Of a DNA stretch of 48,924 nucleotides, positions 6,253 through 48,707 are shown piece after piece (the stretch's first letter is position 1; each line of letters opens with the position of its first letter). The notes under the pieces are model-generated. The model made no database searches and was not told where the DNA came from. It worked only from the letters and a program-made list of their open reading frames with translations. Source of the DNA: Nemertoderma westbladi (lineage: Eukaryota > Animalia > Xenacoelomorpha); the NCBI GenBank assembly GCA_032718475.1, contig JAUCBJ010001528.1, forward strand, positions 1 through 48,924, in the 5' to 3' direction. The translations under genes were made by a program, and so were the position numbers.

Positions 6253-6409
6253 TGTATTATTTTACTGATTTGATGTGGATATCCTGAACTATACAAAAAA
6301 GAAAATATATTAGCAGTCTTATTTGTGGAAAAAATATTAATTGTGATATCGGTACTTCTAATAAAAGCAATATCAAAACAAGGATAAGGATTACTGTAGC
6401 TCATCTTAC

Positions 6410-6977: not shown

Positions 6978-7110
6978 CCACCTTGGTGTAGTGGTTGCAT
7001 TGAATTCACATCTCTCCAGAGGTCGTGAGTTCGATCCCTGCTTGTGGGCAAGTGCAGTTTTATGTTAGGCACGAATGCTTTAAAGGGACTAGCCAGGGCG
7101 CATCTCTGCC
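6978..7110 (+). mobile_element. tRNA-derived SINE 5' part
   Basis: A-box-like tggtgtagtggtt and B-box-like gagttcgatccc. Body matches 36-140 and runs directly into the 15-bp array. Confidence 0.65.
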
Positions 7111-8563
7111 TGCTCCTTTCATCCCTGCTCCTTTCTTATCTGCTCCTTTCTTCTCTGCTCCTTTCTTCCCTGCTCCTTTCTTCCCTACTCCTTTCTTCCC
7201 TGCTCCTTTCTTCCCTGCTCCTTTCTTCCCTGCTCCTTTCTTATCTGCTCCTTTCTTCTCTGCTCCTTTCTTCCCTGCTCCTTTCTTCCCTACTCCTTTC
7301 TTCCCTGCTCCTTTCTTCCCTGCTCCTTTCTTCCCTGCTCCTTTTTTCCCTGTCCCTTTCTTCCCTGCTCCTTTCTTCCCTGCTCCTTTCTTCCCTGCTC
7401 CTTTCTTCCCTGCTCCTTTCTTCCCTCCTCCTTTCTTCTCTGCTCCTTTCTTCCGTACTCCTTTCTTCCCTGCTCCTTTTTTCCCTGTCCCTTTCTTCCC
7501 TTCTCCATTCTGCCCTACTCCTTTCTTCCCTGCTCCTTTCTTCCCTGCTCCTTTCTTCCCTGCTCCTTTCTTCCCTGCTCCTTTCTTCTCTGCTCCTTTC
7601 TTCCGTACTCCCTTCTTCCCTGCTCCTTTTTTCCCTGTCCCTCTCTTCCCTGCTCCTTTCTTCCCTGCTCCTTTCTTCCCTACTCCTTTCTTCCCTGCTC
7701 CTTTCTTCCCTGCTCCTTTCTTCCCTGCTCCTTTATTCCTGCTCCTTTATTCCTGCTCTTTTCTTCCCTGCTCCTTTTTTCCCTGTCCCTTTCTTCCCTT
7801 CTCCATTCTGCCCTACTCCTTTCTTCCCTGCTCCTTTCTTCCCTGCTCCTTTCTTCCCTGCTCCTTTCTTCCCTGCTCCTTTCTTCTCTGCTCCTTTCTT
7901 CCGTACTCCTTTCTTCCCTGCTCCTTTTTTCCCTGTCCCTTTCTTCCCTCCTCCTTTCTTCCCTGCTCCTTTCTTCCCTACTCCTCTCTTCACTGCTCCT
8001 TTCTTCCCTGCTCCTTTATTCCTGCTCCTTCATTCCTGCTCCTTTCTTCCCTGATCCTTTCTTCCCTGCTCCTTTCTTCCCTGCTCCTTTCTTCCCTGCT
8101 CCTTTCTTCCCTGCTTCTTTCTTCCGTGCTCCTTTCTTCCCTGCTCCTTTCTTCCCTGCTCCTTTCTTCCATGCTCCTTTCTCCCCCCTGCTCTTTTCTT
8201 CCCTCCTCCTTTATTCCTGCTCCTTTATTCCTGCTCCTTTCTTCCCTGCTCCTTTCTTCCCTGCTCCTTTCTTCCGTACTCCTTTCTTCCCTGCTCCTTT
8301 ATTCCTGCTCCTTTCTTCCCTGCTCCTTTCTTCCCTGCTCCTTTCTTCCCTGCTCCTTTCTTCCCTGCTCCATTCTTCACTGCTCCTTTCTTCCCTGCTC
8401 CATTCTTCCCTGCTCCTTTCTTCCCTGCTCCTTTCTTCCATGCTCCTTTATCCCCCTTGCTTTTTTCTTCCCTGCTCCTTTCTTCCCTGCTCCTTTCTTC
8501 CCTGCTCCATTCTTCACTGCTCCTTTCTTCCGTGCTCTTTTCTTCCCTGCTCCTTTCTTCCCT
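7109..8563. repeat. 15-bp polypyrimidine minisatellite (tgctcctttcttccc)n, about 95-100 units
   Basis: Directly visible tandem array. It generates the spurious PAPFF/LLSS/KKGAG ORFs. Confidence 0.97.
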
Positions 8564-11394: not shown

Positions 11395-11600
11395 TCATGG
11401 AGTCAATAAGCATGGTGGATTGGATAGCCCCTGACTTTCTTGAGACGCATCTTAAAGGACTCTGGCCTTGAAGATGCGGATGATCCAGCAAATGTCATGG
11501 GTGATAGGGAGTTGTGGCGGCGCAATTTTGTCGACAAACCGACACAGCATTCTTAATATATATAAATATTGCAGCTGCAAGGCAGCATGCCGATCGTAGT
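11395..11600 (+). mobile_element. 3' end of RTE-type LINE (family B)
   Basis: Colinear with 2190-2370 and with the reverse of 37682-37870. Ends gcagctgcaaggcagcatgccgatcgtagttg, where the 21-bp array starts. Confidence 0.7.
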
Positions 11601-13900
11601 TGTAGTAGTAGTACGGGTAGCTGTAGTAGTAGTACGGGTAGTTGTAGTAGTAGTACGGGTAGTTGTAGTAGTAGTACGGGTAGTTGTAGTAGTAGTACGG
11701 GTAGTTGTAGTAGTAGTACGGGTAGTTGTTGTAGTAGTACGGGTAGTTGTAGTAGTAGTACGGGTAGTTGTAGTAGTAGTACGGGTAGTTGTAGTAGTAG
11801 TACGGGTAGTTGTAGTAGTAGTACGGGTAGTTGTAGTAGTAGTACGGGTAGTTGTAGTAGTATTACGGGTAGTTGTAGTAGTAGTACGGGTAGTTGTAGT
11901 AGTAGTACGGGTAGTTCGTAGTAGTAGTACGGGTAGTTGTAGTAGTAGTACTGGTAGTTGTAGTAGTAGTACGGGTAGCTGTAGTATTAGTACGGGTAGT
12001 TGTAGTAGTAGTAGTAGTACGGGTAGTTGTAGTAGTAGTACGGGTAGTTGTAGTAGTAGTACGGGTAGTTGTAGTAGTAGTACGGGTAGTTGTAGTAGTA
12101 GTACGGGTAGTTGTAGTAGTAGTACGGGTAGTTGTAGTAGTAGTACGGGTAGTTGTAGTAGTAGTACGGGTAGTTGTAGTAGTAGTAGTAGTACGGGTAG
12201 TTGTAGTAGTAGTGCGGGTAGCTGTAGTAGTAGTACGGGTAGTTGTAGTAGTAGTAGTAGTACGGGTAGTTGTAGTAGTAGTACGGGTAGTTGTAGTAGT
12301 AGTACGGGTAGTTGTAGTAGTAGTAGTACGGGTAGTTGTAGTAGTAGTACGGGTAGCTGTAGTAGTAGTACGGGTAGTTGTAGTAGTAGTACGGGTAGTT
12401 GTAGTAGTAGTACGGGTAGTTGTAGTAGTAGTAGTAGTACGGGTAGTTGTAGTAGTAGTACGGGTAGTTGTAGTAGTAGTACGGGTAGTTGTAGTAGTAG
12501 TACGGGTAGTTGTAGTAGTAGTACGGGTAGTTGTAGTAGTAGTACGGGTAGTTGTAGTAGTAGTACGGGTAGTTGTAGTTGTAGTAGTACGGGTAGTTGT
12601 AGTAGTAGTACGGGTAGCTGTAGTAGTAGTACGGGTAGTTGTAGTAGTAGTACGGGTAGTTGTAGTAGTAGTACGGGTAGTTGTAGTAGTAGTACGGGTA
12701 GTTGTAGTAGTAGTACGGGTAGTTGTAGTAGTAGTACGGGTAGTTGTAGTAGTAGTACGGGTAGTTGTAGTAGTAGTACGGGTAGTTGTAGTAGTAGTAC
12801 GGGTAGTTGTAGTAGTAGTACGGGTAGTTGTAGTAGTAGTACGGATAGTTGTAGTAGTAGTACGGGTAGTTGTAGTAGTAGTACGGGTAGTTGTAGTAGT
12901 AGTACGGGTAGTTGTAGTAGTAGTACGGGTAGTTGTAGTAGTAGTACTGGTAGTTGTAGTAGTAGTACGGGTAGCTGTAGTAGTAGTACGGGTAGTTGTA
13001 GTAGTAGTACGGGTAGCTGTAGTAGTAGTACGGGTAGTTGTAGTAGTAGTACGGGTAGTTGTAGTAGTAGTACGGGTAGTTGTAGTAGTAGTACGGGTAG
13101 TTCGTAGTAGTAGTACGGGTAGTTGTAGTAGTAGTACTGGTAGTTGTAGTAGTAGTACGGGTAGCTGTAGTAGTAGTACGGGTAGTTGTAGTAGTAGTAC
13201 GGGTAGCTGTAGTAGTAGTACGGGAAGTTGTAGTAGTAGTACGGGTAGTTGTAGTAGTAGTACGGGTAGTTGTAGTAGTAGTACGGGTAGTTGTAGTAGT
13301 AGTACGGGTAGTTGTAGTAGTAGTACGGGTAGTTGTAGTAGTAGTACGGCTAGTTGTAGTAGTAGTACGGGTAGTTGTAGTAGTAGTACGGGTAGTTGTA
13401 GTAGTAGTACGGGTAGTTGTAGTAGTAGTACGGGTAGTTGTAGTAGTAGTACGGGTAGTTGTAGTAGTAGTACGGGTAGTTGTAGTAGTAGTACGGTAGT
13501 TGTAGTAGTAGTACGGGTAGTTGTAGTAGTAGTACGGGTAGTTGTAGTAGTAGTACGGGTAGTTGTAGTAGTAGTACGGGTAGCTGTAGTAGTAGTACGG
13601 GTAGTTGTAGTAGTAGTACGGGTAGTTGTAGTAGTAGTACGGGTAGTTGTAGTAGTAGTACGGGTAGCTGTAGTAGTAGTACGGGTAGTTGTAGTAGTAG
13701 TACGGGTAGTTGTAGTAGTAGTACGGGTAGTTGTAGTAGTAGTACGGGTAGTTGTAGTAGTAGTACGGGTAGTGTAGTAGTTGTAGTAGTACGGGTAGTT
13801 GTAGTAGTAGTACGGGTAGTTGTAGTAGTAGTACGGGTAGTTGTAGTAGTAGTACGGGTAGTTGTAGTAGTAGTACGGGTAGTTGTAGTAGTAGTACGGG
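11597..13900. repeat. 21-bp minisatellite (acgggtagttgtagtagtagt)n, about 110 units
   Basis: Directly visible. It generates the spurious SSSTGSC/VVVVVVR ORFs. Confidence 0.97.
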
Positions 13901-15862
13901 TTATTGCCTTTTTAGTGCCCCTTTATGTCTAGGCAATTTTATGGGAAGAAATTGACCATGACGGTATTTTCCAGGGGGCAATAGTCCGGATGAGCAATTG
14001 TCCTGCTCTTCACTGATCTATTGGGGGAGCCAGAATTAATATTGTCAACTTAAAATACTCCTTAATTACGCTAACCCTATGTTTTATTTTCAGAACTTAT
14101 ATTCAATTTCATTACAATTAGCAATGGACCGCTTACGTGAGAAAATTAAATCAGAATTTTTTCATACTTTTCATTGAAAACACCGCTATTTTCAAAAAAA
14201 TTAAATCTTAAAAATATGCACACAAAAAAATATAAAAACTCCTTGTATTTTATTATATTATTACAGAAACAACAAGCTCACATTAGAACCCAAAAATATG
14301 CGAACTGATTGGTAACAATGCCAACCAATAAGACCTCGATTATATTTTCACTTTGGGTATTTCCTGGTCGCTGAATTTTCACATTTGATGGCGATTAAAA
14401 CTGTCTGTTAGTCTGTTATGTCTGCTCTCGGTTATATTTCGACGGACAGAGAACGACAGGTATTCACACAAGCACGACGCTGTCAATATCGTAAACTTAC
14501 ATAGGAATTGAAATTTTCGACCACAAAAAAACACCTGGAGGAAAACACTTTATTTAGCTAGATCGTGTGCTTTCCAATGTGTTAACGAACAGTCAGTCAG
14601 TGAATCATATCTAGAGAAGTAAAAGAGAAACAGGTTTCCAGATTTTGAACCCTTATAAAATTGATCTGGGTGTAAAACAAACAAAAATGTTAAATTTCAA
14701 TATGGAAGTTAATATCTGGGATTCATTCATAACAATAATTTCATGATATCATTTCTTACGAAATTGTGTTCGTTGCTCACGACTTCACGATACGACAGAT
14801 CACACAAAGCATCACAAATCACACATTGAACAACAAAATATGTTTTATAGGTAATATCAATACTGCACATATACCACCGCCAATGAAAAGAAAAAATGAT
14901 TTGCTTTAACACGTGCCGCCCTCAATAGGACCAGGTATTCTGCTTCAATGACTCCAGTTTAATTGGTCTAATACTCAGAGTGATTTATATTCCACGCACT
15001 GCGATAACAATTAGCGCATGTGGGGGGCGCCACTGGGAGAAAAATTATTGTGTTCCATCCAAAAGGCAACACTCTGGGCCCAGAACGGATCACGTGCTGT
15101 GTGAACTGGGACATGGCAAAGAAACTGCCGGATTGGTTGCGGGTGGGTAGGGCCCGCATAACGACGGCATTCGATCAATGGGGACGCCATCCCCGGCAAA
15201 CAGCCATTGTTTACCGGGCTGGTTGACCAAAGGCAGCCCCCACGTGGAAGCGGTCTGCCCTAGCTCCGATAACTCCAGCCTCTCCATCAAAAACTACCCA
15301 TTATGTTGCGGACAAAAACGTGGCGAAACTGGCAAGTCAACTCGTGGTTGGGGCTCACCGGGTCGCAACCTGGGCACCGTTGTATCCCACCGGTCACGGT
15401 CACATTAACATTGAAGTAATAATAAAGTATCTAAAGATCAACCGACGGGCGACGGCTATTATACAACCCGCTAAACGCATCTTATATCACAAGCTTAATA
15501 ATCTAAGCAATATAGCTGATGTTGGTGTGCGTGTTGGGAAATCGAAATAGAATAGAAACATTTTGCATTTAATTAATTAATTGTAAAATATTACATAATC
15601 TCTCAGCGACCTGTAAAGCAAAAGTTTACATTAATTCCTTCTGATGAATACGGTAACTAGTGTTTCACTTTCACCTGATGGGATCGTTATAATACTTATT
15701 AGATTGATCTTATTATATGATTTTAAATAATTAAACAATTATAGGTTAACATAATTAAAATAAAACAATTAATAACAGCACAAACAATACAATTGAAATT
15801 TAAATTAATTTAAATTCAATCCAGATTTACTTATAAAACATGGACTAGAAATAAAACATTAA

Positions 15863-16320: not shown

Positions 16321-18758
16321 CACACTGGCAAGGTCTACATAAAACATTAGCTACACACACCAGCAAGGTCTACATAAAACATTAGCTACACACCGGCAAG
16401 GTCTACATAAAACATTAGCTACACACACCAACAAGGTCTACATAAAACATTAGCTACACACACCAACAAGGTCTACATAAAACATTAGCTACACACACCA
16501 GCAAGGTCTACATAAAACATTAGCTACACACACCAACAAGGTCTGCATAAAACTTTAGCTACACACACCAACAAGGTCTACATAAAACATTAGCTACACA
16601 CACCAGCAAGGTCTACATAAAACATTAGCTACACACACCAACAAGGTCTACATAAAACATTAGCTACACACGCCAACAAGGTCTGCATAAAACATTAGCT
16701 ACACACACCAACAAGGTCTGCATAAAACATTAGCTACACACACCAACAAGGTCTACATAAAACATTAGCTACACACACCAACAAGGTCTACATAAAACAT
16801 TAGCTACACACACCAGCACGGTCTACATAAAACATTAGCTACACACACCAACAAGGTCTACATAAAACATTAGCTACACACACCAACAAGGTCTGCATAA
16901 AACATTAGCTACACACACCAACAAGGTCTACATAAAACATTAGCTACACACACCAACAAGGTCTACATAAAACATTAGCTACACACACCAACAAGGTCTA
17001 CATAAAACATTAGCTACACACACCAGCACGGTCTACATAAAACATTAGCTACACACACCAACAAGGTCTACATAAAACATTAGCTACACACACCAACAAG
17101 GTCTACATAAAACATTAGCTACACACACCAGCACGGTCTACATAAAACATTAGCTACACACACCAACAAGGTCTACATAAAACATTAGCTACACACACCA
17201 ACAAGGTCTGCATAAAACATTAGCTACACACACCAACAAGGTCTACATAAAACATTAGCTACACACACCAACAAGGTCTACATAAAACATTAGCTACACA
17301 CACCAGCACGGTCTACATAAAACATTAGCTACACACACCAGCACGGTCTACATAAAACTTTAGCTACACACACCAACAAGGTCTACATAAAACTTTAGCT
17401 ACACACACCAACAAGGTCTACATAAAACATTAGCTACACACACCAACAAGGTCTACATAAAACATTAGCTACACACACCAGCAAGGTCTACATAAAACAT
17501 TAGCTACACACACCGGCAAGGTCTACATAAAACATTAGCTACACACACCAACAAGGTCTACATAAAACATTAGCTACACACACCAACAAGGTCTGCATAA
17601 AACATTAGCTACACACACCAACAAGGTCTACATAAAACATTAGCTACACACACCAGCATCGAAGGTCTACATAAAACATTAGCTACACACACCAACAAGG
17701 TCTACATAAAACATTAGCTACACACACCAACAAGGTCTACATAAAACTTTAGCTACACACACCAACAAGGTCTACATAAAACTTTAGCTACACACACCAA
17801 CAAGGTCTACATAAAACATTAGCTACACACACCAACAAGTTCTACATAAAACTTTAGCTACACACACCAACAAGGTCTACATAAAACATTAGCTACACAC
17901 ACCAACATCGAAGGTCTACATAAAACATTAGCTACACACACCAACAAGGTCTACATAAAACATTAGCTACACACACCAACATCGAAGGTCTACATAAAAC
18001 ATTAGCTACACACACCAACAAGGTCTACATAAAACATTAGCTACACACACCAACAAGGTCTACATAAAACTTTAGCTACACACACCAACAAGGTCTACAT
18101 AAAACTTTAGCTACACACACCAACAAGGTCTACATAAAACATTAGCTACACACACCAACAAGGTCTACATAAAACATTAGCTACACACACCAACATCGAA
18201 GGTCTACATAAAACATTAGCTACACACACCAACAAGGTCTACATAAAACTTTAGCTACACACACCAACAAGTTCTACATAAAACTTTAGCTACACACACC
18301 AACAAGGTCTACATAAAACATTAGCTACACACACCAACATCGAAGGTCTACATAAAACATTAGCTACACACACCAACAAGGTCTACATAAAACATTAGCT
18401 ACACACACCAACAAGGTCTACATAAAACTTTAGCTACACACACCAACAAGGTGTACATAAAACATTAGCTACACACACCAACAAGGTCTACATAAAACAT
18501 TAGCTACACACACCAACAAGGTGTACATAAAACATTAGCTACACACACCAACAAGGTCTACATAAAACATTAGCTACACACACCAACAAGGTCTACATAA
18601 AACTTTAGCTACACACACCAACAAGGTGTACATAAAACATTAGCTACACACACCAACAAGGTCTACATAAAACATTAGCTACACACACCAACAAGGTGTA
18701 CATAAAACATTAGCTACACACACCAACAAGGTCTACATAAAACATTAGCTACACACAC
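16321..18758. repeat. 35-bp minisatellite (acacacaccaacaaggtctacataaaacattagct)n, about 70 units
   Basis: Directly visible head-to-tail array without spacers. Variant units are clustered (+tcga at about 17655-18345, gtgtac at about 18450-18700). Confidence 0.97.
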
Positions 18759-20562: not shown

Positions 20563-22290
20563 TCATTTTTTAATCCAAACAGCAATTTCACGAATTATCA
20601 ACCAAAACTTGGTGGAGCTCACTGTAATAACAATCCGGACGCACTGCACTGGGTCCGGATATCGTTCGGAGATATCCCGGATATCAGCTGTGCCGCTCCG
20701 CGATATGTCTCCGATCTTAGAGAACCCTAAGCAGGAGATGGCCCCCTTAAGGGTCCACGCGGTCAACCTTGGCGACAGATAAACGTCTGCGCCTCGGATA
20801 AGATCTTCCGGGTGTTGTTTGTTACCGGTGAGGATTACCAATCTGGACAACCGTACTGGCTCCCGGAACACCAAGGTAACGTGATCGTCAACTCGGTATT
20901 CGTTCACCCAGAAGTAACCTGCGTCCGTGTAGGCTAGGTTCGCATGGAAGTCGGTGTAGGGCCGTCTGCTAGAGACCACGAATCCACGCGGGTTGTCCGC
21001 TACTCCCACAAACTCTTTCTCGCTCCCGTAGAAAGGATCCATTTTCAGCTGCTTCTTGTTCTTCAATGAGGAACTAGTTCCCATGTGTTGGAACAGAGAA
21101 GGGCGAAATTCAATAATGTCTCTTTGTCCGAAGAGTTTATAGAAAATCGGCATTAAAAAATCTACCGGCATTTCCTCGTAGAAGAACAAGTAAAATAATG
21201 CGATTTCCTTGAGGTAGGAATTGGGTACTAATTTCCCAATGTGTCCCAGATTGCTGTACTCAGACATTACCCACGAGGCGTTCTGTGCGTTAATTTTCTC
21301 GATGTGTTGAGCGATGGAGCGAGTGAAATTATTCTCAGCGGTTACATCGTCCTCTAAATGTAAGTAATACCGGCCCAATCCGCTGCAGTAATTCATGAGA
21401 AAGGAGAAATCTACGCACTGTTTGGAACGCCAGTAAACCCGCTCGGGTTTGTCCCCGAAATTGTTCCTTAAGTTGTCAAGTCGAGGGTAAAAATTGGGAG
21501 GAGCCTCGATAAATCGGAGGAGTCCGGAGGCGATATAAGATTGGAAGAGAGGCAACGTGTTGGCCAACACATTCTTACGGGTTTCCTGGTTGGAATCTGC
21601 GAGAAATACGACAATGACGACCCGGTCTAGATGTTCCTCGGCAATATTCTCTATCAAAGAAGACAAAGTCGGTATTAAGTAGTTGGATTTATGACGGAAA
21701 ATAGTTGGGATACCGATAACAAGGATGTTATCCCGGGAATTAAGTGTTTGTGGGGCGGTAGGAGTGGTTGAATTGGTACCGGAATCGTTGACAACAGGAA
21801 TACCGACTACTACAGTTTCGATATTCGGAATATGAAGTCGTTCACTGCAAAAACGGTCCCGGTTCAATACCGGGGGTTCATCTCTCGTACTGTTAGGCCT
21901 AATCTCTTCGTCGTTCTGCGTGAGCTTAGACCACTGAATATGGTCGAGGTTGCTACATAACGCTGTGTAATTAATTGTACCTGTAAGGTTGATTTTTACG
22001 TTAAGTTTCGTTTCAGATGGCAGATCTGGAGGAATGGAACGCCTCGAACAGTTTTTTAAGAATTTCAATTGATCGCGGAGTATTTGAAAAACTAATTGAA
22101 GGGTCTTCCGTTCTGTAATAAGTTCCTGGTTCTTAGATATTACCAATTGTTCGTAGTTAGCTGAACTTGTTAACAGCAAAAGACTTAACATGAAGCTGCA
22201 CAATATGCTTGCTACAAGAAATCCCGTATTTTCAGTGCAATTGTTAAGATATTTATATACTATATTTCTAACAAATGTTAGTTTTCTCAC
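20563..22290 (-). CDS. MGAT4C: Alpha-1,3-mannosyl-glycoprotein 4-beta-N-acetylglucosaminyltransferase C-like (GT54); true start uncertain
   Basis: 575-codon uninterrupted ORF. Type II TM segment and stem, then GT54 motifs IGIPTIFR..NYLIPTLSSL, NNFGDKPERVYWRSKQCVDFSFLM, YYLHLEDDV, LGHIGKL, FFYEEMPVDFL, FRPSLFQHMGTSSSL, and a C-terminal lectin-like region ending WLIIREIAVW. Confidence 0.93.
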   Translation of the reverse strand: MRKLTFVRNIVYKYLNNCTENTGFLVASILCSFMLSLLLLTSSANYEQLVISKNQELITERKTLQLVFQILRDQLKFLKNCSRRSIPPDLPSETKLNVKINLTGTINYTALCSNLDHIQWSKLTQNDEEIRPNSTRDEPPVLNRDRFCSERLHIPNIETVVVGIPVVNDSGTNSTTPTAPQTLNSRDNILVIGIPTIFRHKSNYLIPTLSSLIENIAEEHLDRVVIVVFLADSNQETRKNVLANTLPLFQSYIASGLLRFIEAPPNFYPRLDNLRNNFGDKPERVYWRSKQCVDFSFLMNYCSGLGRYYLHLEDDVTAENNFTRSIAQHIEKINAQNASWVMSEYSNLGHIGKLVPNSYLKEIALFYLFFYEEMPVDFLMPIFYKLFGQRDIIEFRPSLFQHMGTSSSLKNKKQLKMDPFYGSEKEFVGVADNPRGFVVSSRRPYTDFHANLAYTDAGYFWVNEYRVDDHVTLVFREPVRLSRLVILTGNKQHPEDLIRGADVYLSPRLTAWTLKGAISCLGFSKIGDISRSGTADIRDISERYPDPVQCVRIVITVSSTKFWLIIREIAVWIKK

Positions 22291-23051
22291 TCTGATACTT
22301 CATCATAATGAAGGATGCAAGATAATTTAATTATATTACTCATACAATCTGTGCCTAAGTAATAAATCTGTAGGCCTAAGTAATAATGAGGAGTTATTAT
22401 CGGATTTCTGCTTGCTGTAGATTCATAAATCTATTTACTTTCATTTTCCATTATGGTACCGGTATGTAGTCAATATTCATGTTTCTACATGCAGTTAACA
22501 GTGTAAGCCTATCATGACGAAGGCCTACACTACTGTAGCCAATACTCTTCCTTGTCATGTGCCGTTCTACACAAACATTATTGATTTTGAAATTATTAAC
22601 TACTTCTTGCTTTCGTAATACATACATCTACTACTAACAGATATTAAATCGGGCACACGCACACTAGATGTATTAATTACAGTACATTTAACAACAACAA
22701 CATTATTTTTTATACATCTATAGGAGGGCTCCGTGGACCTGGGATAGCCACATGGTTCCCTATTAAAACAAAAGGCGTAGTAGTGTAGACTGGACACGTT
22801 CGTGGGGCCTTCGCGCAGCACGAGGCCCAGTTATTAGATACAAATTGAAATTGAGCGACTGTATCACAAAATCAGGTTTTGAGAAATTTACCCACACCAC
22901 CAATCAATCAAAGAAAGGGGGACAGTACGTGTTCACCCCTTTTAATCCCCCCCCCCCCCCCCCCCCACCACCCTTCCCAACCACCAATACATAACCGCGA
23001 CATCTACCACCCACAGAAGGGTAGCACGAACTTATTTCCAATCGCACGTTA

Positions 23052-30280: not shown

Positions 30281-30648
30281 ATAATATAAGAGTTATTACT
30301 CGAGAACAATGAATTTTTTAATAAAAATGGGATGGTGTGTCTATTCTAATAAACCGTGTGCAGTTAAGCGCTACATAGCCGAGGCACCAAGGTGGGATCT
30401 GGCTACACAATCAGCTGGAATATGTTGCCAACTGGCGGCATAAAGAAAGGTTACGAGCATGCTGTAATGCAACTATAGGAGGCGTTTTCGATATTGAGAC
30501 AACTCAGCGCAGTTAGGTGCAACATCGGCATATGCGACTTTTTCGAGAACGCGTGTATGAATGCATTGCGTACTGCTATGCTCTTTAAACTGCGTCGCTG
30601 ACGACGCGAGAACATTTTAATCAACTTTTTTCAATTTTCAAACAGGTG

Positions 30649-30921
30649 ATGTCAAATGAGCAAACTCCTCTAAGTTATCCTCCAATGGCCCTCCAACCCA
30701 CCAACTCAGTGGAACAAATCCCCGCAGGGATTATAAGGCAGCCTCTTGGTTCCCTAAACCCCAATGTAACAAGACCCAGAACCCCACCAAACAGCTGCGG
30801 GAAACTGAAAGTAAAGGAGCGACGCAGTAACAAACCGATCATGGAAAAGAAAAGAAGAGCTCGGATCAATTCCAGTTTAAACCAATTGAAGTACCTAATT
30901 CTCGACGCTCTTAGAAAAGAT
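30649..30921 (+). CDS. HES: HES coding exon 1 (basic region, helix 1)
   Basis: ATG 30649, GAT|gttagt donor. An acceptor-like ttttcaaacag ends at 30645, so an upstream exon may exist. Confidence 0.9.
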
Positions 30922-33900
30922 GTTAGTAACAAGGAACAACCAATAATTATAAATTTAATAAATATATCCTACTTCGGCAATTAACTTTCTGTTGATAGTT
31001 ATAGCTCGGATATTATTTTAAATTTACTTATTTGATATAATATTATTATATTTATCATATTTGATTGTGCAAAAATATTTTTAAATATTTTATTTCAAAA
31101 TTGTAACATTAGGATTTAACGTCGTTAGTACATATTATTAATGCCGAGTTGTTAATGTAGCACATATCTTTAGAGTAGAATAAACCAACTCAATATTACA
31201 GATGCATTATTTGATTGATAAGTTCCTATTAATAATTTATGATATTCCACCAAAAATATTACATATTTTATAGCCATAAAATATCCAGGCGGGATTTTAG
31301 ATTATAAATCGATTCACAACATTATTTTGGATACATCTACAAACATACAAAGTTGCAAAGTACTTTCTATTAATCTGATCCTCGCGACTTTTTTTAAACT
31401 CACTCACTACGTTCGTTCGTGTAACAGACCACTCGAGTCATCAAATTGTGAAGTGCCACTTACACAATATTGTTGATACTGTACTTTAACATATATAATA
31501 TATTATTATTTGTTTATTGTTTATTAGCGTTTTACTTTACAGCATAACTTTGACCAACATATTTTATTTGCAGACAAGCAAACATTCGAAGCTGGAGAAA
31601 GCCGATATCCTGGAAATGACGGTAAACCATTTGCGAAATCTTAAACGGAAGGAACTCGTAGGTGAGTTTCATTAAATTACAAAATCATTGAATAATAACA
31701 CTTTACTTAGAAAATAGTTTTACTTACTCTTACAGATTCGCCCACCAACCCCAAGCTATCAATAAGTTTACTTATTCTTACAGATTCGCCCAACCAACCC
31801 CAAGCTATCAATAGTTTTATTTATTCTTACAGATTCGCCCAACCAACCCCAAGTTATCAATAAGTTTACTTATTCTTACAGATTCGCCCAATCAACCCCA
31901 AGCTATCAATAAGTTTACTTATTCTTACAGATTCGCCCAACCAACCCCAACCCCAAGCTATCAATAAGTTTACTTATTCTTACAGATTCGCCCAACAAAC
32001 CCCAAGCTATCAATAAGTTTACTTATTCTTACAGATTCGCCCAACCAACCCCAAGCTAACAATAAGTTTACTTATTCTTACAGATTCGCCCAACCAACCC
32101 CAAGCTATCAATAAGTTTACTTATTCTTACAGATTCGCCCAACCAACCCCAAGCTATCAATAAGTTTACTTATTCTTACGGATTCGCCCAACCAACCCCA
32201 AGCTATCAATAAGTTTACTTATTCTTACAGATTCGCCCAACCAACCCCAAGCTATCAATAAGTTTACTTATTCTTACGGATTCGCCCAACCAACCCCAAG
32301 CTATCAATAAGTTTACTTATTCTTACAGATTCGCCCAACCAACCCCAAGCTATCAATAAGTTTACTTATTCTTACAGATTCGCCCAACCAACCCTAAGCT
32401 ATCAATAAGTTTACTTATTCTTACGGATTCGCCCAACCAACCCCAAGCTATCAATACGTTTACTTATTCTTACAGATTCGCCAAACCAACCCCAAGCTAT
32501 CAATACTTTTATTTATTCTTACAGATTCGCCCAACCAACCCCAAGCTAACAATAAGTTTACTTATTCTTACAGATTCGCCCAACCAACCCCAAGCTATCA
32601 ATAAGTTTACTTATTCTTACAGATTCGCCAAACCAACCCCAAGTTATCAATAAGTTTACTTATTCTTACAGATTCGCCCAACCAACCCCAAGTTATCAAT
32701 ACGTTTACTTATTCTTACAGATTCGCCCAACCAACCCCAAGCTAACAATAAGTTTACTTATTCTTACAGATTCGCCCAACCAACCCCAAGCTATCAATAA
32801 GTTTACTTATTCTTACAGATTCGCCAAACCAACCCCAAGTTATCAATAAGTTTACTTATTCTTACAGATTCGCCCAACCAACCCCAAGTTATCAATACGT
32901 TTACTTATTCTTACAGATTCGCCCAACCAACCCCAAGTTATCAATAAGTTTACTTATTCTTACAGATTCGCCCAACCAACCCCAAGTTATCAATAAGTTT
33001 ACTTATTCTTACAGATTCGCCCAACCAACCCCAAGCTATCAATAGTTTTACTTATTCTTACAGATTCGCCCAACCAACCCCAAGTTATCAATAGTTTTAT
33101 TTATTCTTACAGATTCGCCCAACCAACCCCAAGCTATCAATAGTTTTATTTATTCTTACAGATTCACCCAATCAACCCCAAGCTATCAATAAGTTTACTT
33201 ATTCTTACAGATTCGCCCAACCAACCTCAAGCTATCAATAAGTTTACTTATTCTTACAGATTCGCCCAACCAACCCCAAGCTATCAATAAGTTTACTTAT
33301 TCTTACAGATTCGCCCAACCAACCCCAAGCTATCAATACGTTTACTTATTCTTACAGATTCGCCCAACCAACCCCAAGCTATCAATAAGTTTACTTATTC
33401 TTACAGATTCGCCCAACCAACCCCAAGCTATCAATACGTTTACTTATTCTTACAGATTCGCCCAACCAACCCCAACCCCAAGTTATCAATAAGTTTACTT
33501 ATTCTTACAGATTCGCCAAACCAACCCCAAGTTATCAATAAGTTTACTTATTCTTACAGATTCGCCCAACCAACCCCAAGCTATCAATAAGTTTACTTAT
33601 TCTTACAGATTCGCCCAACCAACCTCAAGCTATCAATAAGTTTACTTATTCTTACAGATTCGCCCAACCAACCTCAAGCTATCAATAAGTTTACTTATTC
33701 TTACAGATTCGCCCAACCAACCCCAAGCTATCAATAAGTTTACTTATTCTTACAGATTCGCCCAACCAACCCCAAGCTATCAATAAGTTTACTTATTCTT
33801 ACAGATTCGCCCAACCAACCCTAAGCTATCAATAAGTTTACTTATTCTTACAGATTCGCCCAACCAACCCCAAGCTATCAATAAGTTTACTTATTCTTAC

Positions 33901-36900
33901 AGATTCGCCCAACCAACCTCAAGCTATCAATAAGTTTACTTATTCTTACAGATTCGCCCAACCAACCTCAAGCTATCAATAAGTTTACTTATTCTTACAG
34001 ATTCGCCCAACCAACCCCAAGCTATCAATAAGTTTACTTATTCTTACAGATTCGCCCAACCAACCCCAAGCTATCAATAAGTTTACTTATTCTTACAGAT
34101 TCGCCCAACCAACCCCAAGCTATCAATAAGTTTACTTATTCTTACAGATTCGCCCAACCAACCCCAAGCTATCAATAAGTTTACTTATTCTTACAGATTC
34201 GCCCAACCAACCCCAAGCTATCAATAAGTTTACTTATTCTTACAGATTCGCCCAACCAACCCCAAGCTATCAATACGTTTACTTATTCTTACAGATTCGC
34301 CCAACCAACCCCAAGCTATCAATAAGTTTACTTATTCTTACAGATTCGCCCAACCAACCCCAAGCTATCAATAAGTTTACTTATTCTTACAGATTCGCCC
34401 AACCAACCCCAAGCTATCAATACGTTTACTTATTCTTACAGATTCGCCCAACCAACCCCAAGCTATCAATAAGTTTACTTATTCTTACAGATTCGCCCAA
34501 CCAACCCCAAGCTATCAATACGTTTACTTATTCTTACAGATTCGCCAAACCAACCCCAAGTTATCAATAAGTTTACTTATTCTTACAGATTCGCCCAACC
34601 AACCCCAAGCTATCAATAAGTTTACTTATTCTTACAGATTCGCCCAACCAACCCCAAGCTATCAATACGTTTACTTATTCTTACAGATTCGCCAAACCAA
34701 CCCCAAGTTATCAATAAGTTTACTTATTCTTACAGATTCGCCCAACCAACCCCAAGCTATCAATAAGTTTACTTATTCTTACAGATTCGCCCAACCAACC
34801 CCAAGCTATCAATACGTTTACTTATTCTTACAGATTCGCCCAACCAACCCCAAGCTATCAATACGTTTACTTATTCTTACAGATTCGCCAAACCAACCCC
34901 AAGTTATCAATAAGTTTACTTATTCTTACAGATTCGCCCAACCAACCCCAAGCTATCAATAAGTTTACTTATTCTTACAGATTCGCCCAACCAACCCCAA
35001 GCTATCAATACGTTTACTTATTCTTACAGATTCGCCAAACCAACCCCAAGTTATCAATAAGTTTACTTATTCTTACAGATTCGCCCAACCAACCCCAAGC
35101 TATCAATAAGTTTACTTATTCTTACAGATTCGCCCAACCAACCCCAAGCTATCAATAAGTTTACTTATTCTTACAGATTCGCCCAACCAACCCCAAGCTA
35201 TCAATACGTTTACTTATTCTTACAGATTCGCCCAACCAACCCCAAGCTATCAATACGTTTACTTATTCTTACAGATTCGCCCAACCAACCCCAAGTTATC
35301 AATAAGTTTACTTATTCTTACAGATTCGCCCAACCAACCCCAAGCTATCAATAAGTTTACTTATTCTTACAGATTCGCCCAACCAACCCCAAGCTATCAA
35401 TACGTTTACTTATTCTTACAGATTCGCCCAACCAACCCCAAGCTATCAATAAGTTTACTTATTCTTACAGATTCGCCCAACCAACCCCAAGTTATCAATA
35501 CGTTTACTTATTCTTACAGATTCGCCCAACCAACCCCAAGCTATCAATAGTTTTACTTATTCTTACAGATTCGCCCAACCAACCCCAAGTTATCAATAAG
35601 TTTACTTATTCTTACAGATTCGCCAAACCAACCCCAAGTTATCAATAAGTTTACTTATTCTTACAGATTCGCCAAACCAACCCCAAGTTATCAATAAGTT
35701 TACTTATTCTTACAGATTCGCCCAACCAACCCCAAGTTATCAATACGTTTACTTATTCTTACAGATTCGCCCAACCAACCCCAAGCTATCAATAGTTTTA
35801 CTTATTCTTACAGATTCGCCCAACCAACCCCAAGTTATCAATAAGTTTACTTATTCTTACAGATTCGCCCAACCAACCCCAAGCTATCAATACGTTTACT
35901 TATTCTTACAGATTCGCCCAACCAACCCCAAGCTATCAATAAGTTCCGCGCTGGCTTCAATGAATGCGCAACAGAAGTGACGCGATACGTCCAGGGTATG
36001 AAAGACATCGATTCCGTACTAAAAGTGCAAATGTTGAGCCAGTTAGCGAAAAGGTAAAAATATTCATGTAGCGGGATTCAATTAATATTTTATTAATATT
36101 CACAGAGTTGATAAAGGCAGCCAACGTACTATTGTTTTTACCGTGTTTGGATTAATATGTATAATTTATTCATATTATTAGAATAAACTGTAATAGTAGT
36201 TCATGTACATGATTACACTCCCATTTCCTACAGTATAATTTACTTCACTGCAGCCATGTGCGGTGCGTCCCACTGGGGTATACCATTTAATATAAGGATA
36301 CTTCAAAAGAATCTGAAAGCTTTACAGAACTGCACACACAATAATTGCATTTAAATTAGTTGAACCCAGCTCAGCGCATCCACAAACTAATTAAACTTTA
36401 ATTCTCTTTCAGTGTCGGCTCTTTGAACCAGGTTTCTGCGTCATCGTCGCCCCCCAATCAGCCGCTACAGATCGACATTCCCGGAACCTCCCGGTTGTCC
36501 CAACCGATGTCGTCCGGAACCCTAGATTCCGGATATACCAGCGTTCCGGGACTTACTCCGGACACCTGTACATCCATAACGGACGAGTCTCCATTCGTGC
36601 CGGACAACAACAGTCCATCAGTCCCGGACACCTGTCCATCCGTTACCGACACTCGCTTCTCTCACACACAAACGGAAAATGACCAAGGTTACTTCGAGGA
36701 AATGGGTCACCGCAGCGAACATTCGGAACCACTCTTCAATATGCGCCCTCTAACGGGAAACGATGTTTCTCGTGTTACTGCAACCGATAACTCATTACAA
36801 CCGATAGATGGCGCAGTTCGTTCTCTCGTTACACCCGCTACTGCGCTACCCACGCTACAGCCCAGCACGACCTTGCCAGTTACCCCACCAACCTCGCTCC

Positions 36901-37361
36901 ACAATTCAACCCTTACCAACCCTTACCATTTCCAGCCGACAACCAAAAACTTCCACCCTATCGCTGTGTTACCTGACCAAACCCAAGGTATTCCAATTGG
37001 GGTTTCGGCAATGCAACCAATGGGTCCTAGATTCCCAATGGTAACGGGTTTACTACCCAGTAACCAATTAGCGAATCGCGCAGGCCCAGCTATGTTCATG
37101 GCGCCGTCAGGTCACCCCTCAGCGACTAATAACATGGACTTACTCCCGCCCAAGATATACTACGAAATGGTCGCTATGCAACCGCCACAGACCCCTCAGA
37201 TGCCTCAGAGAGCTATGGTGCAGGGAATGTTTACAAGGCAACCGAATTCTGCAATGATGATGGTGCCTTCTCAGGGTGTTATGTATCCAACACCAGAGAT
37301 GAGCGGAGCCGGATATATTATCAAACAGGACTCCAATGGATTTATGTGGCGTCCGTGGTAG
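30649..37361 (+). CDS. HES: Hairy/Enhancer-of-split family bHLH-Orange-WRPW repressor (HES1/HES4-like), 4 coding exons, about 483 aa
   Basis: Exons 30649-30921, 31574-31661, 35912-36053 and 36413-37361 join in frame. [54 protein letters not shown] (bHLH with basic-region Pro), [17 protein letters not shown] (Orange), terminal MWRPW*. Confidence 0.95.
31574..31661 (+). CDS. HES: HES coding exon 2 (loop, helix 2), 88 nt
   Basis: ttatttgcag acceptor, G|gtgagt donor. Encodes [29 protein letters not shown]. Confidence 0.95.
31714..35945 (+). repeat. 49-bp minisatellite made of the HES intron-2 acceptor plus exon-3 start, about 86 units
   Basis: Unit gtttacttattcttacag|attcgcccaaccaaccccaagctatcaataa. 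The last unit continues into the Orange-domain coding sequence. Confidence 0.97.
35912..36053 (+). CDS. HES: HES coding exon 3 (Orange domain), 142 nt
   Basis: Encodes (D)[48 protein letters not shown]|gtaaaa donor. In frame only from the last repeat-unit acceptor. Confidence 0.9.
36413..37361 (+). CDS. HES: HES coding exon 4 (P/S/T/Q/M-rich tail, WRPW)
   Basis: ttctctttcag acceptor. Phase 2 joins the 36423-37361 ORF, which ends WRPW-TAG. Confidence 0.95.
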
Positions 37362-37681
37362 GAAACACAGCAAACTAAATCCATCACGGGAATTGGAACT
37401 TATGATTTTCTGAGATTTTTATATCTATTTTTTAGTTAATGCTAATAATCCTTTCGCTTACCTAGTGCTCAGTGCTTATAGAAGTACAATATATGCAGTA
37501 GCGATATATAATCCATTGTTTCATGTCATATTTATTTTATAAAGTGTATAAAATATTATATATAATACTGTATGTATAGACCCACGTAGCCTCAGGTTGG
37601 TCTCCAGAACATCACTTTATTCCATTACGGTATGTGATACAATCTCAATCTAATTTGACTGGATGAGGTGACCGTTATTCT

Positions 37682-39745: not shown

Positions 39746-40455
39746 CTTTTCCTTTTCCTTGTCCTTGTCCTTGTTTGTCCTTGTCCTTGTCATTGTCCTT
39801 GTTTGTCCTTGTCCTTGTCATTGTCCTTGTTTGTCCTTGTCATTGTCCTTGTCCTTTTCCGTGTCCTTTTCCTTTTCCTTGTCCTTGCCCTTGTCCGTGA
39901 CCTTGTCCTTGTCCTTGTTTTTGTCCTTGTCCTTGTTTTTTCTTGTCCTTGTCATTGTCCTTATTCTTGTCCTTGTCCTTGTCATTGTCCTTGTTTGTCC
40001 TTGTCATTGTCCTTTTCCGTGTCCTTTTCCTTGACCTTGTCCGTGACCTTGTCCTTGTTTTTGTCCTTGTCCTTGTTTTTTCTTGTCCTTGTCATTGTCC
40101 TTGTTCTTGTCCTTTTCCTTGCCCTTGTCCGTGTCCTTGTCCTTGTTTTTGTCCTTGTTTTTTCTTGTCCTTGTCATTGTCCTTGTCCTTTTCCTTGCCC
40201 TTGTCCGTGTCCTTGTTTTTGTCCTTGTTTTTTCTTGTCCTTGTCATTGTCAGTGTTCTTGTCCTTGTCCTTTTCCTTGCCCTTGTCCTTGTCCTTGTTT
40301 TTGTCCTTGTTTTTTCTTGTCCTTGTCCTTGTCCTTGTCCTTTTCCTTGCCCTTGTCCGTGTCCTTGTCCTTGTTTTTGTCCTTGTTTTTTCTTGTCCTT
40401 GTCATTGTCAGTGTTCTTGTCCTTGTCCTTGTTTTTGTCCTTATTCCTGTTCATG
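39746..40455. repeat. (cttgtc)n-derived compound satellite
   Basis: Hexamer variants cttgtc/cattgtc/ttttgtc with recurring higher-order blocks. Explains the CPCPC/LSLSL/LVLVL ORFs. Confidence 0.95.
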
Positions 40456-44126: not shown

Positions 44127-44306
44127 ATGGAGAAGCAAGGTTATGGATATGATGCGCAAGGGGGTGGTGGTGGTGGCCCTGTAGCTCCGCCACCATATTC
44201 TCAAAATATCCCCCCATCCAGTTCATCTCAATATCCTCAACAGCCACAATATTACCCAAATGCCCCACCAACCATCCAACCACCAGGACAACAACCATCC
44301 GGTTAT
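44127..44306 (+). CDS. Dispanin exon 1
   Basis: ATG, MEKQGYGYDAQGGGGGGPVAPPPYSQ..., TAT|gtaagt donor. Confidence 0.88.
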
Positions 44307-47300
44307 GTAAGTGCCTAAACCTGTAAACGGCTAAATCTGTATACCGATAGGCCTACCGGTATGCGAAATTGCGTAGTCAGTGTTGTGCCAGTGCAGCTGT
44401 GTGCTAAGTGCAGAAGTGCTACTACATACTACTACAGTACCGGTACTAGGACTGTAGGATCAGCATGCTGCTTTGCAGCTGCGGGACGTTCCTGTTTGGG
44501 GTCCTCCATTTTGAATTTTTTTTACTGTCATTTTACCAGTTCCCATGGCAAACCACTAATAAAATTTTTGTATTTTTGGTCAATTCTGCAATTTACCGCT
44601 TTCTAGAGGCTAGAGCAGTAAACGAAACCACTTAGAAATTAGGTCAATTTACCGGTTTCCTACAACAAAATACTTAGAACATTAACATATAATTTTGATT
44701 CAAAGTAAGCTGCTCCCAACTGCCCAAACCCCCACGTACAGGTTTTAGTTAGAGCGCTACCTCCCTCAAACCACTTTTAAAACACATCATTCCCATTTAA
44801 AAGTATTGTTCTTCCAAAATCAATTCCTCTATCAGTCTATGCCCTTGATTAAGAAATCTACCGGTAATTATTTTAAAGTTTGTTTCTTAACATAATATTA
44901 AGTAGTACCGGTACCTGTAGTCTGGTAGTAACTAGTAAAACAGTAATAACGATAGAAAACAATACAAGATCCAAGATGTGACCTGATTCGCATACATACA
45001 GACACAGACTGACAGATTGCACAGTAATATTCTATATAATTACCTAATTAACTAAAACTGCTGCTAATTAACTATTAAGAAATGCCAAATAATGGTCCTC
45101 TGGCTGGTCCTCACGGCGAAAGCAATGTCCTGCAAAGCGGAGGCGACTTCGTTCTAGTGTCAAGCTTGGCGCAACCAATCAGCCAATGAGACACCTCCAG
45201 CTCCAATGTTATATAGTGTCTGGTTGGAGATGAGTGCATTGTACTTGACACAATGAACCCGGCGTAGCATTCTTGTGAATGTACCATCCCGAGATTTGGT
45301 GTCCTCACCCTCAGCAGTTAGAGCCCAGTATTGACTCACATAGAGAAGAGGAGTACCGGAACTACTGCTGCTCGAAATAATTAGTTTATTAGACCTTAAG
45401 TTTCCGATTATGTGTCTTCCAAATCCTGGAAACCCTATTCAAGGCTGCCCATGCCTTTACCTTACGTATTCGATGGTCCTCATCTGACTTCCGGATCCAT
45501 GATCCCAGGTAACAGACGTCGTCCACATGCTCAAGCATACCATCCTTTGAGCTTATGCTCATCCGGTCAGAGACAAGTTGACTGTCAACATTTTGGTATT
45601 TTTGGAGTTAAGAAAAAGAAAAAGACCAACACTGCAGTAGAAGCAGCTTGTTCTAATGAGCTGAGGAGCCGTTGGGCTCCCTCTAATGATTCTGAGAGTA
45701 CTCCTAAGTCATCAGCAAAGTCTAGATCAGTTAGGTACTTGGCAGGATTTCCTCGACTTCTGGAGCCAGTAGGTGGAGTTATCATCACCCCATCATCATT
45801 ATGATCATCTAAGGACATGCGTAGAACATAGTCAACCACAATTATGAACATGAATGGCGCAAGTGTGTCTCCCTGGAGGACGCCCCATAACACTTCAAAT
45901 GTCTCTGTGTCACCATCAACAGTAGACACAAATTTTGTCGAACCATCGTATACTGATCTGATTGCTGCAATACTTTCATCAGGAAGCCCATATAATGAAA
46001 GTATGCTGAATATACGTGTGTGCGCCTAGCGCCTGTATGCTGTTGTGTATTTATTGTTAGGGCTGCAGCTGTACAGTCTGACAGTGTTAAATGGGTCTCT
46101 AGTACAATTTTAGAATCGTTCAGAAAGTCAATAGTACCGGTAGTACTTACTTCTGACTAGTAAATATGTGAGATGTTTTCTAATTCTATGTCATATATAT
46201 TCTATACCAAACGTGGTTCAAGGTCTACACCCACCGACAATTAACAAAAAGAAAGTGCATCGCAGCGAGCTTTCTGCCTCTCCCAGACACTAGAGACCTT
46301 CCTCATGCTTTATTAAGTACATTATAAGTACAGTAAGAATAAAATACTGAAATACCACAATACACATTGTCAGATTGTGGGGTACTTATAACTTTAATAA
46401 AGTATGAGGAAAGCCTCTAGTGTCAAGGAGAGGCAGAAAGCTCAGAATGGCTGCGATTAGTGCGATACCCTTTCTTTTTGTTACTTGTCGGTGGGTGAAG
46501 GTAGACCTTCAGACCTTGAACCACGTTTGTTGTATTAAATTAATCATCCCCACCTTACCTGCTATAACTGTATAATATTCTTTAAATACATTAATAATTT
46601 AATCTTGCAGGCACCAGTTCCTCAACCTGGTTTCCAGGCACCGGTACATCAACCTGGTTTCCAGGCATACCCACCCAACTACGGTCCTGGTATTCAACCT
46701 ACACCGGCCTACGGCGTACAGCCAGTAATGGTTCTTACAGAAGCTCCAAATGACTACATGGCGCTCGCAGTGTTTGCCTGTCTCTGTTGCTTCTGGCCTG
46801 TTGGAATTTGTGCCATAATAAAGTCATGCGAGGTTGGTATGGTAGTAGTAGGTCGTACGTTAGGTATGGGGCTCCTTACTCTATAAGTAGCATATTTGCC
46901 CACCACAAGTGGTCAATTATTGTTGGGTAATTTTGGTGGCCGTGGGTTCCAGGAGCAGGAATGGAATACTTTGACCACGAGTTTTTTATCACACAAATTT
47001 GAGTTATTTTGTGTTGCAAACTGGCCGCCTATATCCTAATTAAAACTGTCATATCATGTTACCCTGACTCTAAGCCTGTAAGGCATTTGTGCCAATGGCA
47101 ATACGCCGGAAATTCCATCAAATTCCTCAGATTTGCGCGTCGCCCATTACTATCACTTTGATTTAGGGGTTACATGGCTGATCTCATTTTGCTTTTATCC
47201 AATATATATACAAACCAAAATATGAAATAAGCAAACGCCAGACTGGTACCGGTACTGAAACACGTCATTAGCCTACCGACACCAGATTTTAAAATTCAAT

Positions 47301-48707
47301 CGCCCGTGGTAAAGTCGACGACGCATTCGACCGATATGGTATTTGTCTCCCACCAGTATGCTCCCAGATTAATTATATCAAACTGCAGTGTGTGTGTTTG
47401 TTTTGCAGACTCGTGATGCTGTCACGGCTAGCAACTTCCCAGTAGCTAGTGCCGCATCCCGTGACACCAAGAAGTATTCTCTCATCAGTATTGGTATCGG
47501 AATTGTGTCAATTACCTTGGCCGTCATTATCAATTTATGCGTTTTTTTTATATTATTACCTCACTGATTCCCGAATTAAGGTTGGATTTAGTGGCTCTAT
47601 GGGTACCACCAACCTCGTATGGGTACCGGTACCACCAACCTCGTACTACCTGAATAGTATTTTGTTAGCTTTAGAATTATCTTTTTTACACATAAAACAT
47701 TATTTTGTTTGCTAAACTTGTATTTCCTTTAGATTGTTATATTTATTTCTTTGGGAGATTTGCTACTTCTAGGTCTACTACACCTGTATAAATACTTTCA
47801 TGACAAATGAATATTGAATCGCATTTTGCTTTATAAAGTTTATTTAAGGAGCGCCATCTAAACAATAAACTCAATAATCCTTAATTCGGTAATCCTCACT
47901 CACATCACTCTTACCCCTTATCGTTTTATTCAACTACTAATAAAGTTTGTTAGCTAAACTAATGATAAAGCATAGTTTATAATACTAAAGTAAATAACGC
48001 ATCAGCGGCCGTGGTTTTTCTCCCTTTCTAATTTCGTGTTTATCCTCATTGTATTTCTTATTCATTCATGGTTCAATCACATTTTAATACCTACCAGGTA
48101 TTAAGTATTTGAATCTAACTTACAACTATCATTTTTCATTATTTTTATATCGAAGGTAAATTCTTAATTCAACTTTACAAAGTATATTAATTATTTAAAC
48201 ACTTAATTCTGATATGTTTTGATTTGACGAACTTTATTAACGTACCGGTAATGTTAAAAGAACGTATGAAATACCCAGGAATTTGAATGGACCATTTTTA
48301 TTTTAAAATCGAAATAAATGGGTTGATTACCAATACCAATTTTTGTTAGTTATTTTTACATTCCAAAAACATTTTTCATTGTGTGAGTGTCCAAGAAACA
48401 AACTAGGAGAGGACCACATGACAACGGATATCAATGGGAGTTCCGGATACCGGAAGTTGTTGTCAAAAAGAATCCCGTACCGTTAAAGCATTGAAACCCT
48501 GTTGTACATCACGTGTCTCATGAATCACGTGTTTTACTCTGTATGCGTTTGTTCTTTCAGACACGAGATGCCGTCGCGGCCCGTAACATCCCAGTAGCTA
48601 ACGCAGCGTCTCGTAGCGCAAAGAAATACTCGATGATTAGTATAGGTCTCGGAATCGGTATATCCGTTGCCTCCATCATTCTGGTTATAATTATATCAAT
48701 GTTGTAA
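44127..48707 (+). CDS. PRRT1: Proline-rich transmembrane protein 1-like (CD225/dispanin family) with alternative last exons
   Basis: Exons 44127-44306 and 46611-46832, then 47409-47567 or 48561-48707, all phase 0. P/Q/Y-rich N-terminus with PPPY. CD225 signature PNDYMALAVFACLCCFWPVGICAIIKS..TRDAV...A..AS..AKKYS..SI. Confidence 0.9.
45085..46010 (-). mobile_element. RTE-type LINE (family B) fragment in dispanin intron 1
   Basis: RT motifs GVLQGDTLAPFMFIIVVD and YLTDLDFADDL, plus LRFAGHCFR. Frameshifted. Confidence 0.88.
46208..46529. mobile_element. Fold-back MITE in dispanin intron 1
   Basis: caaacgtggttcaaggtct / agaccttgaaccacgtttg termini. Arms of about 120-150 bp are complementary (cacccaccgacaa, gagctttctgcctctcc, ttataagtac). 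Confidence 0.85.
46611..46832 (+). CDS. Dispanin exon 2 (CD225 first hydrophobic segment)
   Basis: aatcttgcag acceptor, GAG|gttggt donor. Encodes APNDYMALAVFACLCCFWPVGICAIIKSCE. Confidence 0.92.
47409..47567 (+). CDS. Dispanin alternative terminal exon 3a
   Basis: tttgttttgcag acceptor. Encodes TRDAVTASNFPVASAASRDTKKYSLISIGIGIVSITLAVIINLCVFFILLPH*. aataaa at 47864. Confidence 0.8.
   Translation, partial: TRDAVTASNFPVASAASRDTKKYSLISIGIGIVSITLAVIINLCVFFILLPH
48561..48707 (+). CDS. Dispanin alternative terminal exon 3b
   Basis: gttctttcag acceptor. Encodes TRDAVAARNIPVANAASRSAKKYSMISIGLGIGISVASIILVIIISML*. Confidence 0.85.
   Translation, partial: TRDAVAARNIPVANAASRSAKKYSMISIGLGIGISVASIILVIIISML

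Follow-up and report, generated by a model that had tools for sequence, protein, structure and literature searches.

The HES gene and its repeat-bearing intron

The stretch of the Nemertoderma westbladi genome analyzed here (contig JAUCBJ010001528.1, positions 1 to 48,924, hereafter the window) carries on its plus strand a gene of the HES/hairy family, one intron of which holds a long tandem array that repeats the intron's own 3' splice site together with the start of the following exon. A first description of the array from sequence alone (the original prediction) had read it as a possible control of HES dose, of an isoform reduced to the basic helix-loop-helix (bHLH) domain, or of transcription delay. 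The spliced model (30649-30921, 31574-31661, 35912-36053, 36413-37361), in which the start of exon 4 was corrected to 36413, encodes 483 amino acids with a single stop and GT..AG introns. As in HES/hairy repressors, a bHLH domain, an Orange domain and a C-terminal WRPW motif lie within one open frame, and the Pfam families PF00010 (HLH) and PF07527 (Hairy_orange) both score above cut-off on its exons. Protein searches, with this piece and in Atlas, gave no close relative. The exons are as follows; run X4, cited in two entries, is described below.

30646 to 30921, plus strand: first coding exon seen of the HES/hairy gene, with the ATG at 30649, the basic region and helix 1 (Pfam HLH, E 2.4e-06)
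31574 to 31661, plus strand: exon with the loop and helix 2 of the bHLH domain (Pfam HLH, E 2e-05; joint from 30921 to 31574, GT..AG, in run X4)
35912 to 36053, plus strand: exon 3, 142 nt, with the linker and the Orange domain (Pfam Hairy_orange, E 5.4e-10; donor GTAAAA at 36054)
36413 to 37361, plus strand: last coding exon, Pro/Ser/Thr-rich, with WRPW and the stop (spliced model; words of 35912-37560 held by X4)

HES genes canonically have an intron immediately ahead of the SNKP motif in the basic region, but this gene has none there. An acceptor ending at 30645 precedes the first coding exon seen. The transcript contig of X4 aligned on 30643-30921 and continues for 229 nt further 5' that do not match 30400-30642, which implies that there is probably an additional upstream exon; putative donors for it are found at 27274 and 28756. 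The array intron, previously numbered intron 2, is thus the second only among the coding exons seen and would be at least the third of the transcript. Two short high-copy elements (31072-31119 and 31374-31443) lie in the first intron, with a summed depth of 850-6300 versus 15-25 in the DNA runs.

Anatomy of the array

Tandem Repeats Finder reported the array at 31719-35945 on the plus strand with a period of 49, 86.0 copies, 96% matches and a score of 7744. Direct counting in the assembly gave 86 acceptor positions, 85 upstream copies (called decoys below) and one working site. Their end positions run from 31735 (74 nt beyond the donor at 31662) to 35911, in agreement with the original prediction.

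31662 to 31735, plus strand: donor and inferred ancestral intron of 74 nt up to the first acceptor, with a branch-like yUnAy motif at -31
31719 to 35945, plus strand: 49-bp minisatellite of 86 copies and 20 variants with higher-order blocks (Tandem Repeats Finder and count)
32035 to 32769, plus strand: decoy acceptors 32083, 32573 and 32769, each with the consensus branch motif CTAAC at -25, and three dead acceptors with AG changed to GG
35863 to 35911, plus strand: final unit with the working acceptor at its end, an ACG-type variant that has neither an AG at -18 nor the junction hairpin

Each unit joins the first 31 nt of exon 3 to an 18-nt acceptor tail, as had been described; its head is identical to 35912-35942, and unit and exon start share 34 nt. 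The unit therefore spans the intron-exon boundary and duplicates the splice site head-to-tail, the two features by which tandem repeats of the 'mirage' type (see below) are recognized. Many but not all splice signals are retained, which is a further trait of mirages: CAG stands at 83 of the 86 acceptors and CGG at three (32181, 32279, 32426), so that 82 of the 85 decoys keep their AG. Most units measure 49 nt (82 of 85; two have 55 nt and one has 48 nt), and 20 unit variants were distinguished. The best unit-like match elsewhere in the window reaches only 27 of 49 positions, and the array is therefore not a product of chance. The mean pairwise difference among 82 units is 3.5%, and repeated words of three to five unit variants exceed 5000 shuffles (p 0.0002-0.0008). 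Such homogenized units in local blocks are the pattern of repeat turnover.

Read-through translation showed that all 85 decoys lead to a premature stop before WRPW, which extends an observation previously made for four acceptors. The decoy products retain the whole bHLH domain, followed by a short tail. The tail length given as typical, 26 amino acids, is indeed the most frequent, but the first acceptor yields a different one of 42 amino acids because unit 1 is one base short. Only the acceptor at 35911 opens into the Orange domain, as expected from the earlier description and from the Pfam match of exon 3.

Presence and length of the array in independent runs

The 3' part of HES is present in four runs (X1-X4) that share an organism label and derive from three samples and as many studies. 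X2 and X3 represent one sample and X4 a third; X1 is possibly the source of the assembly, and hence not independent. On the compared stretch 30400-31815, DNA contigs of X1 and X2 cross the start of the intron and end about 30 nt past the last unique base, where an assembly graph is expected to enter the repeat. Of 1345 flank sites in X2, 28 do not match the window, and the array is thus common to diverged haplotypes.

The summed depths on two repeat bins were far above the flank in all three DNA runs: 3287 and 1812 versus 17.4 in X1 (ratios 189 and 104), 3138 and 2646 versus 25.2 in X2 (125 and 105), and 535 and 346 versus 15.3 in X3 (35 and 23). A naive graph simulation of 86 copies gave ratios of 626 and 389, and the observed ratios are nearer to 10-40 copies. 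Since X2 and X3 derive from the same sample and still differ 3.5- to 4.6-fold in summed repeat depth, this estimate is lossy and serves as a lower bound only. Contig entry in two samples, repeat depth well above the flank and the higher-order variant blocks rule out a pure assembly artefact, which the original prediction had named as a way to be refuted. The array is real DNA; the number 86 is the assembly's count, for which depth supports a lower bound only.

A spliced transcript contig

None of the runs containing the 3' part of HES is labelled RNA. X4 is listed as 'DNA?', and we infer its RNA nature from its behaviour. It yielded one contig of 1858 nt (depth 180.3), in which the exons are present, 30922-31573 is missing with GT..AG borders, and position 31661 is followed directly by a complete unit head. 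Because the compared stretch included the first two units only, this head was assigned to unit 2. The depths of X4 on the two repeat bins (37.6 and 165.3) equal those expected from this contig alone with a 32-letter head match (37.56 and 165.28), indicating that no X4 contig lies on the acceptor tail. The 1262 nt beyond exon 2 fit exon 3 plus the coding sequence of exon 4 (1091 nt) and 171 nt of untranslated region. Additionally, X4 contains 0.55 of the words of 35912-37560, where the ceiling for such an mRNA is 0.74.

From its length, the X4 transcript likely uses the acceptor at 35911. Splicing to a random decoy would leave an average of 43 tails in each RNA, and about 2% of such RNAs would therefore bring the tail depth up to the main depth. 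The gene is expressed, and as far as one transcript contig indicates, splicing appears to skip about 85 acceptors that are almost identical.

Choice of the 3' splice site

Over 82 nt (-49 to +33), four of the 85 decoys show no difference from the working acceptor, and over the shorter span from -18 to +31 this holds for 27 of 85; local sequence can therefore not select the site. Structure cannot do so either, since in predicted accessibility the working acceptor comes 16th to 36th among the 86, and its ACG type is shared by 17 decoys. In 60 of the 85 decoys, the AAG junction contributes an additional AG at -18 and is predicted to cover the pyrimidine tract with a hairpin of -1.9 kcal/mol, which 25 upstream sites lack. 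The weak hairpin and the extra AG may help selection but cannot act as its main filter. A 291-nt piece folded better than 200 of 200 shuffles (z -4.3), yet its centroid was empty, and we rejected RNA structure as the selector; folding around the working site is ordinary (z 0.39). There was no significant sign that the ACG variant is selected at the working site, as 12 of the 34 preceding acceptors carry it as well. The branch motif is likewise not the selector, because it is present at the first acceptor and at the three decoys with CTAAC at -25, which have a better motif than the working site, and is absent at the latter.

Several other splicing routes were also discarded. Seamless removal as a new intron, by duplication of an AG|GT proto-splice site, fails on the unit's three AGs, which are followed by CT, TT and AT, leaving no AG|GT or AG|GC. 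Recursive splicing at ratchet points is contradicted by the ATTC that follows every acceptor, again without AG|GT. Rescue as mini-exons by an internal GT would shift the frame with 31-nt heads (75 units) or 20-nt heads (20 units). The in-frame 30-nt head of six units would depend on the donor ATA|GTTTTA, far from the donor consensus.

What remains as the sole unique feature of 35911 is its proximity to the exon 3 donor. Exon 3 measures 142 nt from this acceptor, and would measure 191, 240 and 289 nt from the next decoys upstream. Exon definition favours those sites that lie nearest across the exon, according to a study of alternative 3' sites (PMC9225289). We consider exon definition the likely selector of the last acceptor.

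Relation to known splice-junction repeats

Tandem repeats across an exon-intron boundary have been described in amphioxus as 'mirages', in Adh3, troponin C, the globins BflGb6 and BflGb9, and PGBD5 (PMC3087553, PMC3902484). The HES array is a further case of this named class, which the original prediction did not take into account; its size is unusual. The BflGb6 repeat lies on the acceptor side like the array described here, with 3-6 units compared to 86, and the range of unit lengths in Adh3 (10-72 bp) includes 49. In amphioxus mirages, as in HES, the splice signal is retained in many units and lost in others. The published data suggest that the amphioxus repeats have no effect on splicing (PMC3087553, PMC3902484), and normal mRNA is made; the counterpart in HES is the one spliced X4 contig, with its continuation into exon 3 inferred. 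The host gene differs, being HES here and Adh3, troponin C, globins or PGBD5 in amphioxus.

Junction minisatellites of human genes include those of F7 IVS7 (37 bp, 5-9 copies) and CBS intron 13 (31 bp, 15-21 copies), as well as 6-16 with 25 pseudo-sites, LMNB2 with 10-15 and PDGF with 16-18 (PMC1557585). They share with HES the tandem identical splice sites and the use of the site that adjoins the exon body. In F7, the pseudo-sites can function but lose by position (PMC1557585). These human arrays are on the donor side, where the true site is transcribed first, whereas the true HES acceptor comes last, 4.2 kb after one that looks usable and without the ancestral branch region. In CBS 844ins68 an acceptor junction is duplicated; the distal of the two sites is strongly favoured and normal mRNA results (PMC2630376), with two copies as opposed to 86 in the HES array. 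Among the matches listed in topical literature searches no case in a HES gene was found, and a metagenome scan with a 20-nt motif of the unit gave 0 matches.

Origin and most probable explanation

At the 49-nt register, the end of the intron and exon 3 share AATA, followed by two mismatches and then TT. The microhomology proposed earlier, aata(a)gtt, is correct in its AATA and TT patches, but it is not gapped, and two mismatches separate the patches. The array contains two junction types, 60 AATAAGTTT and 6 AATAGTTTT, which fit crossovers in either patch.

Taking these observations together, we regard it as probable that the array is a tolerated mirage minisatellite on an expressed HES gene, founded by one slipped or unequal exchange, whose last acceptor is picked by the spliceosome. 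The founding 49-nt duplication would have arisen via the AATA and TT patches common to intron end and exon, and the array would then have expanded by unequal crossing-over or slippage. Factors bound to the exon 3 donor (36054) and to the part of exon 3 beyond nt 34, which all decoys lack, would mark out the 142-nt exon and bring in the closest acceptor upstream of it. Rare decoy-spliced RNAs, carrying a stop well upstream of the last junction, are predicted to be removed by nonsense-mediated decay (NMD). The array needs no function, and most likely it is tolerated and has none.

Several points weigh against this explanation. The continuation of the X4 contig into exon 3 is deduced from its length and not seen directly, and X4 is a single run of inferred RNA nature from a third sample of unspecified array length. 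Contigs drop rare forms, rendering rare decoy RNAs invisible in X4, and NMD could conceal it if many transcripts were lost to decoys. A yUnAy motif is missing from -16 to -42 of the working acceptor but present at all seven other acceptors checked, albeit such short motifs are common by chance. The first acceptor, 74 nt from the donor and equipped with a branch-like motif, should win under intron definition or first-come splicing, and its loss is unexplained. Finally, both groups of human alternative 3' sites in the study cited above prefer the upstream site overall, and exon definition only lessens this bias (PMC9225289).

Alternative explanations

The array could be a dose rheostat, in which a sizeable share of the pre-mRNA, most likely through the first acceptor by intron definition, is spliced to decoys and degraded by NMD, with array length or variants setting HES output. 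The stop upstream of the last exon junction in all 85 decoy products and the position and branch-like motif of the first acceptor speak for this reading, as does the leakage to pseudo-sites in the human donor-side arrays of 6-16 and CBS (PMC1557585). However, no X4 contig lies on decoy tails, even though some 2% of random-decoy RNAs would match the main depth, and leakage is a cost and not by itself a selected control. We therefore regard the rheostat as unlikely; the copy-number-tunable regulator of the original prediction found no support.

Alternatively, the long array might be a recent, harmful or silent allele, or one inflated in length by the assembly, with the normal mRNA made from a short allele. 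The depth ratios below those simulated for 86 copies would fit this proposal, and the array genotype of the X4 sample is not established. Against it, both DNA samples enter the array despite the divergence of the X2 flank, depth provides a lower bound only, with runs of one sample differing about 3.5- to 4.6-fold, and the variant blocks resemble real turnover. In our view, this proposal as a whole is quite unlikely. Decidedly improbable is a stronger version of dose control, a copy-number-variable splice sink in which decoys catch a large share of HES pre-mRNA for NMD, repeat length and variant content determine how much of a developmental repressor that recruits Groucho is made, and a new branch point for the working acceptor has had to come from the exon-derived repeat.

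A stable bHLH-only dominant negative without Orange domain and WRPW is in our view most improbable: decoy products do keep the whole bHLH domain and a short tail, most often of 26 amino acids, but in their mRNAs the stop would be followed by as much as 4 kb of repeat, and none was seen in X4. This argues against an abundant form of the bHLH-only isoform suggested originally. mRNAs with a long repeat behind a premature stop are expected targets of NMD.

Just as improbable is a tuning of the transcription or splicing delay of an oscillating HES gene. Intronic delay is required for Hes7 oscillation (PMC4197574), and competition among acceptors could slow splicing. The 4176 additional nt (4.18 kb) would add only about 0.9-3.8 min at 1.1-4.8 kb/min, however, and most of the Hes7 delay is attributed to splicing and not to length (PMC4173035). 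Moreover, there is no sign that this HES gene oscillates, and any DNA would produce the same length effect.

Other features of the window

Expansion of local sequence is ordinary in this stretch of the genome. Five large arrays, including that in HES, occupy 11115 of 48924 nt (22.7%), an abundance of minisatellites that the original prediction had overlooked. The other four were found by Tandem Repeats Finder:

7109 to 8563: 15 x 97
11596 to 13901: 21 x 108
16329 to 18758: 35 x 69
39746 to 40442: 6 x 119

On the minus strand of 16329-18758, a 35-bp unit resembles a strong acceptor (CTAAT, T-rich run, YAG) in 53 copies, 12 variants have CTAAA, and in 4 the AG is changed to AC. No convincing exon or open frame was found on this strand after the last copy. 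This array may resemble an acceptor by coincidence, or it may be a mirage formed on a non-coding exon.

A CD225/dispanin gene is located at 44127-48707 on the plus strand (Pfam E 5.1e-10). Its two alternative last exons (47409-47567 and 48561-48707) resemble each other, and each follows an acceptor in frame. The gene also has an in-frame 27-bp coding duplication at an exon start (46608-46667), each copy of which ends in an acceptor-like TTTCCAG. The minus strand contains an uninterrupted 578-codon frame of the MGAT4 family (20563-22299; Pfam E 1.2e-67), whose best relative is 39% identical. The top Branchiostoma hit for this MGAT4 protein reaches 41% over 45% of the query, and the host of the HES array is thus probably no species of that amphioxus genus. 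It also holds broken frames at 9384-10832 and 45585-46025, which we take to resemble the reverse transcriptase of long interspersed nuclear elements. A 227-codon minus-strand frame at 783-1466 has hydrophobic ends and several cysteines, and no Pfam family above cut-off.

Implications

A regulatory role of the array would matter more if it were true, but it finds no support here. What remains odd is the size of the array and a working acceptor that has no consensus branch point while some decoys have one. With 86 copies compared to at most 25 pseudo-sites, it is the longest among the published cases compared, with Adh3 counts not included. The locus holds up as the good natural test of 3' splice-site choice that it had been proposed to be, and a clean one: the working acceptor is transcribed last, identical decoys are present, and a site that looks usable follows the donor after 74 nt. 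Should the last acceptor be chosen all the same, exon definition would prevail in this animal even over the option of a short intron.

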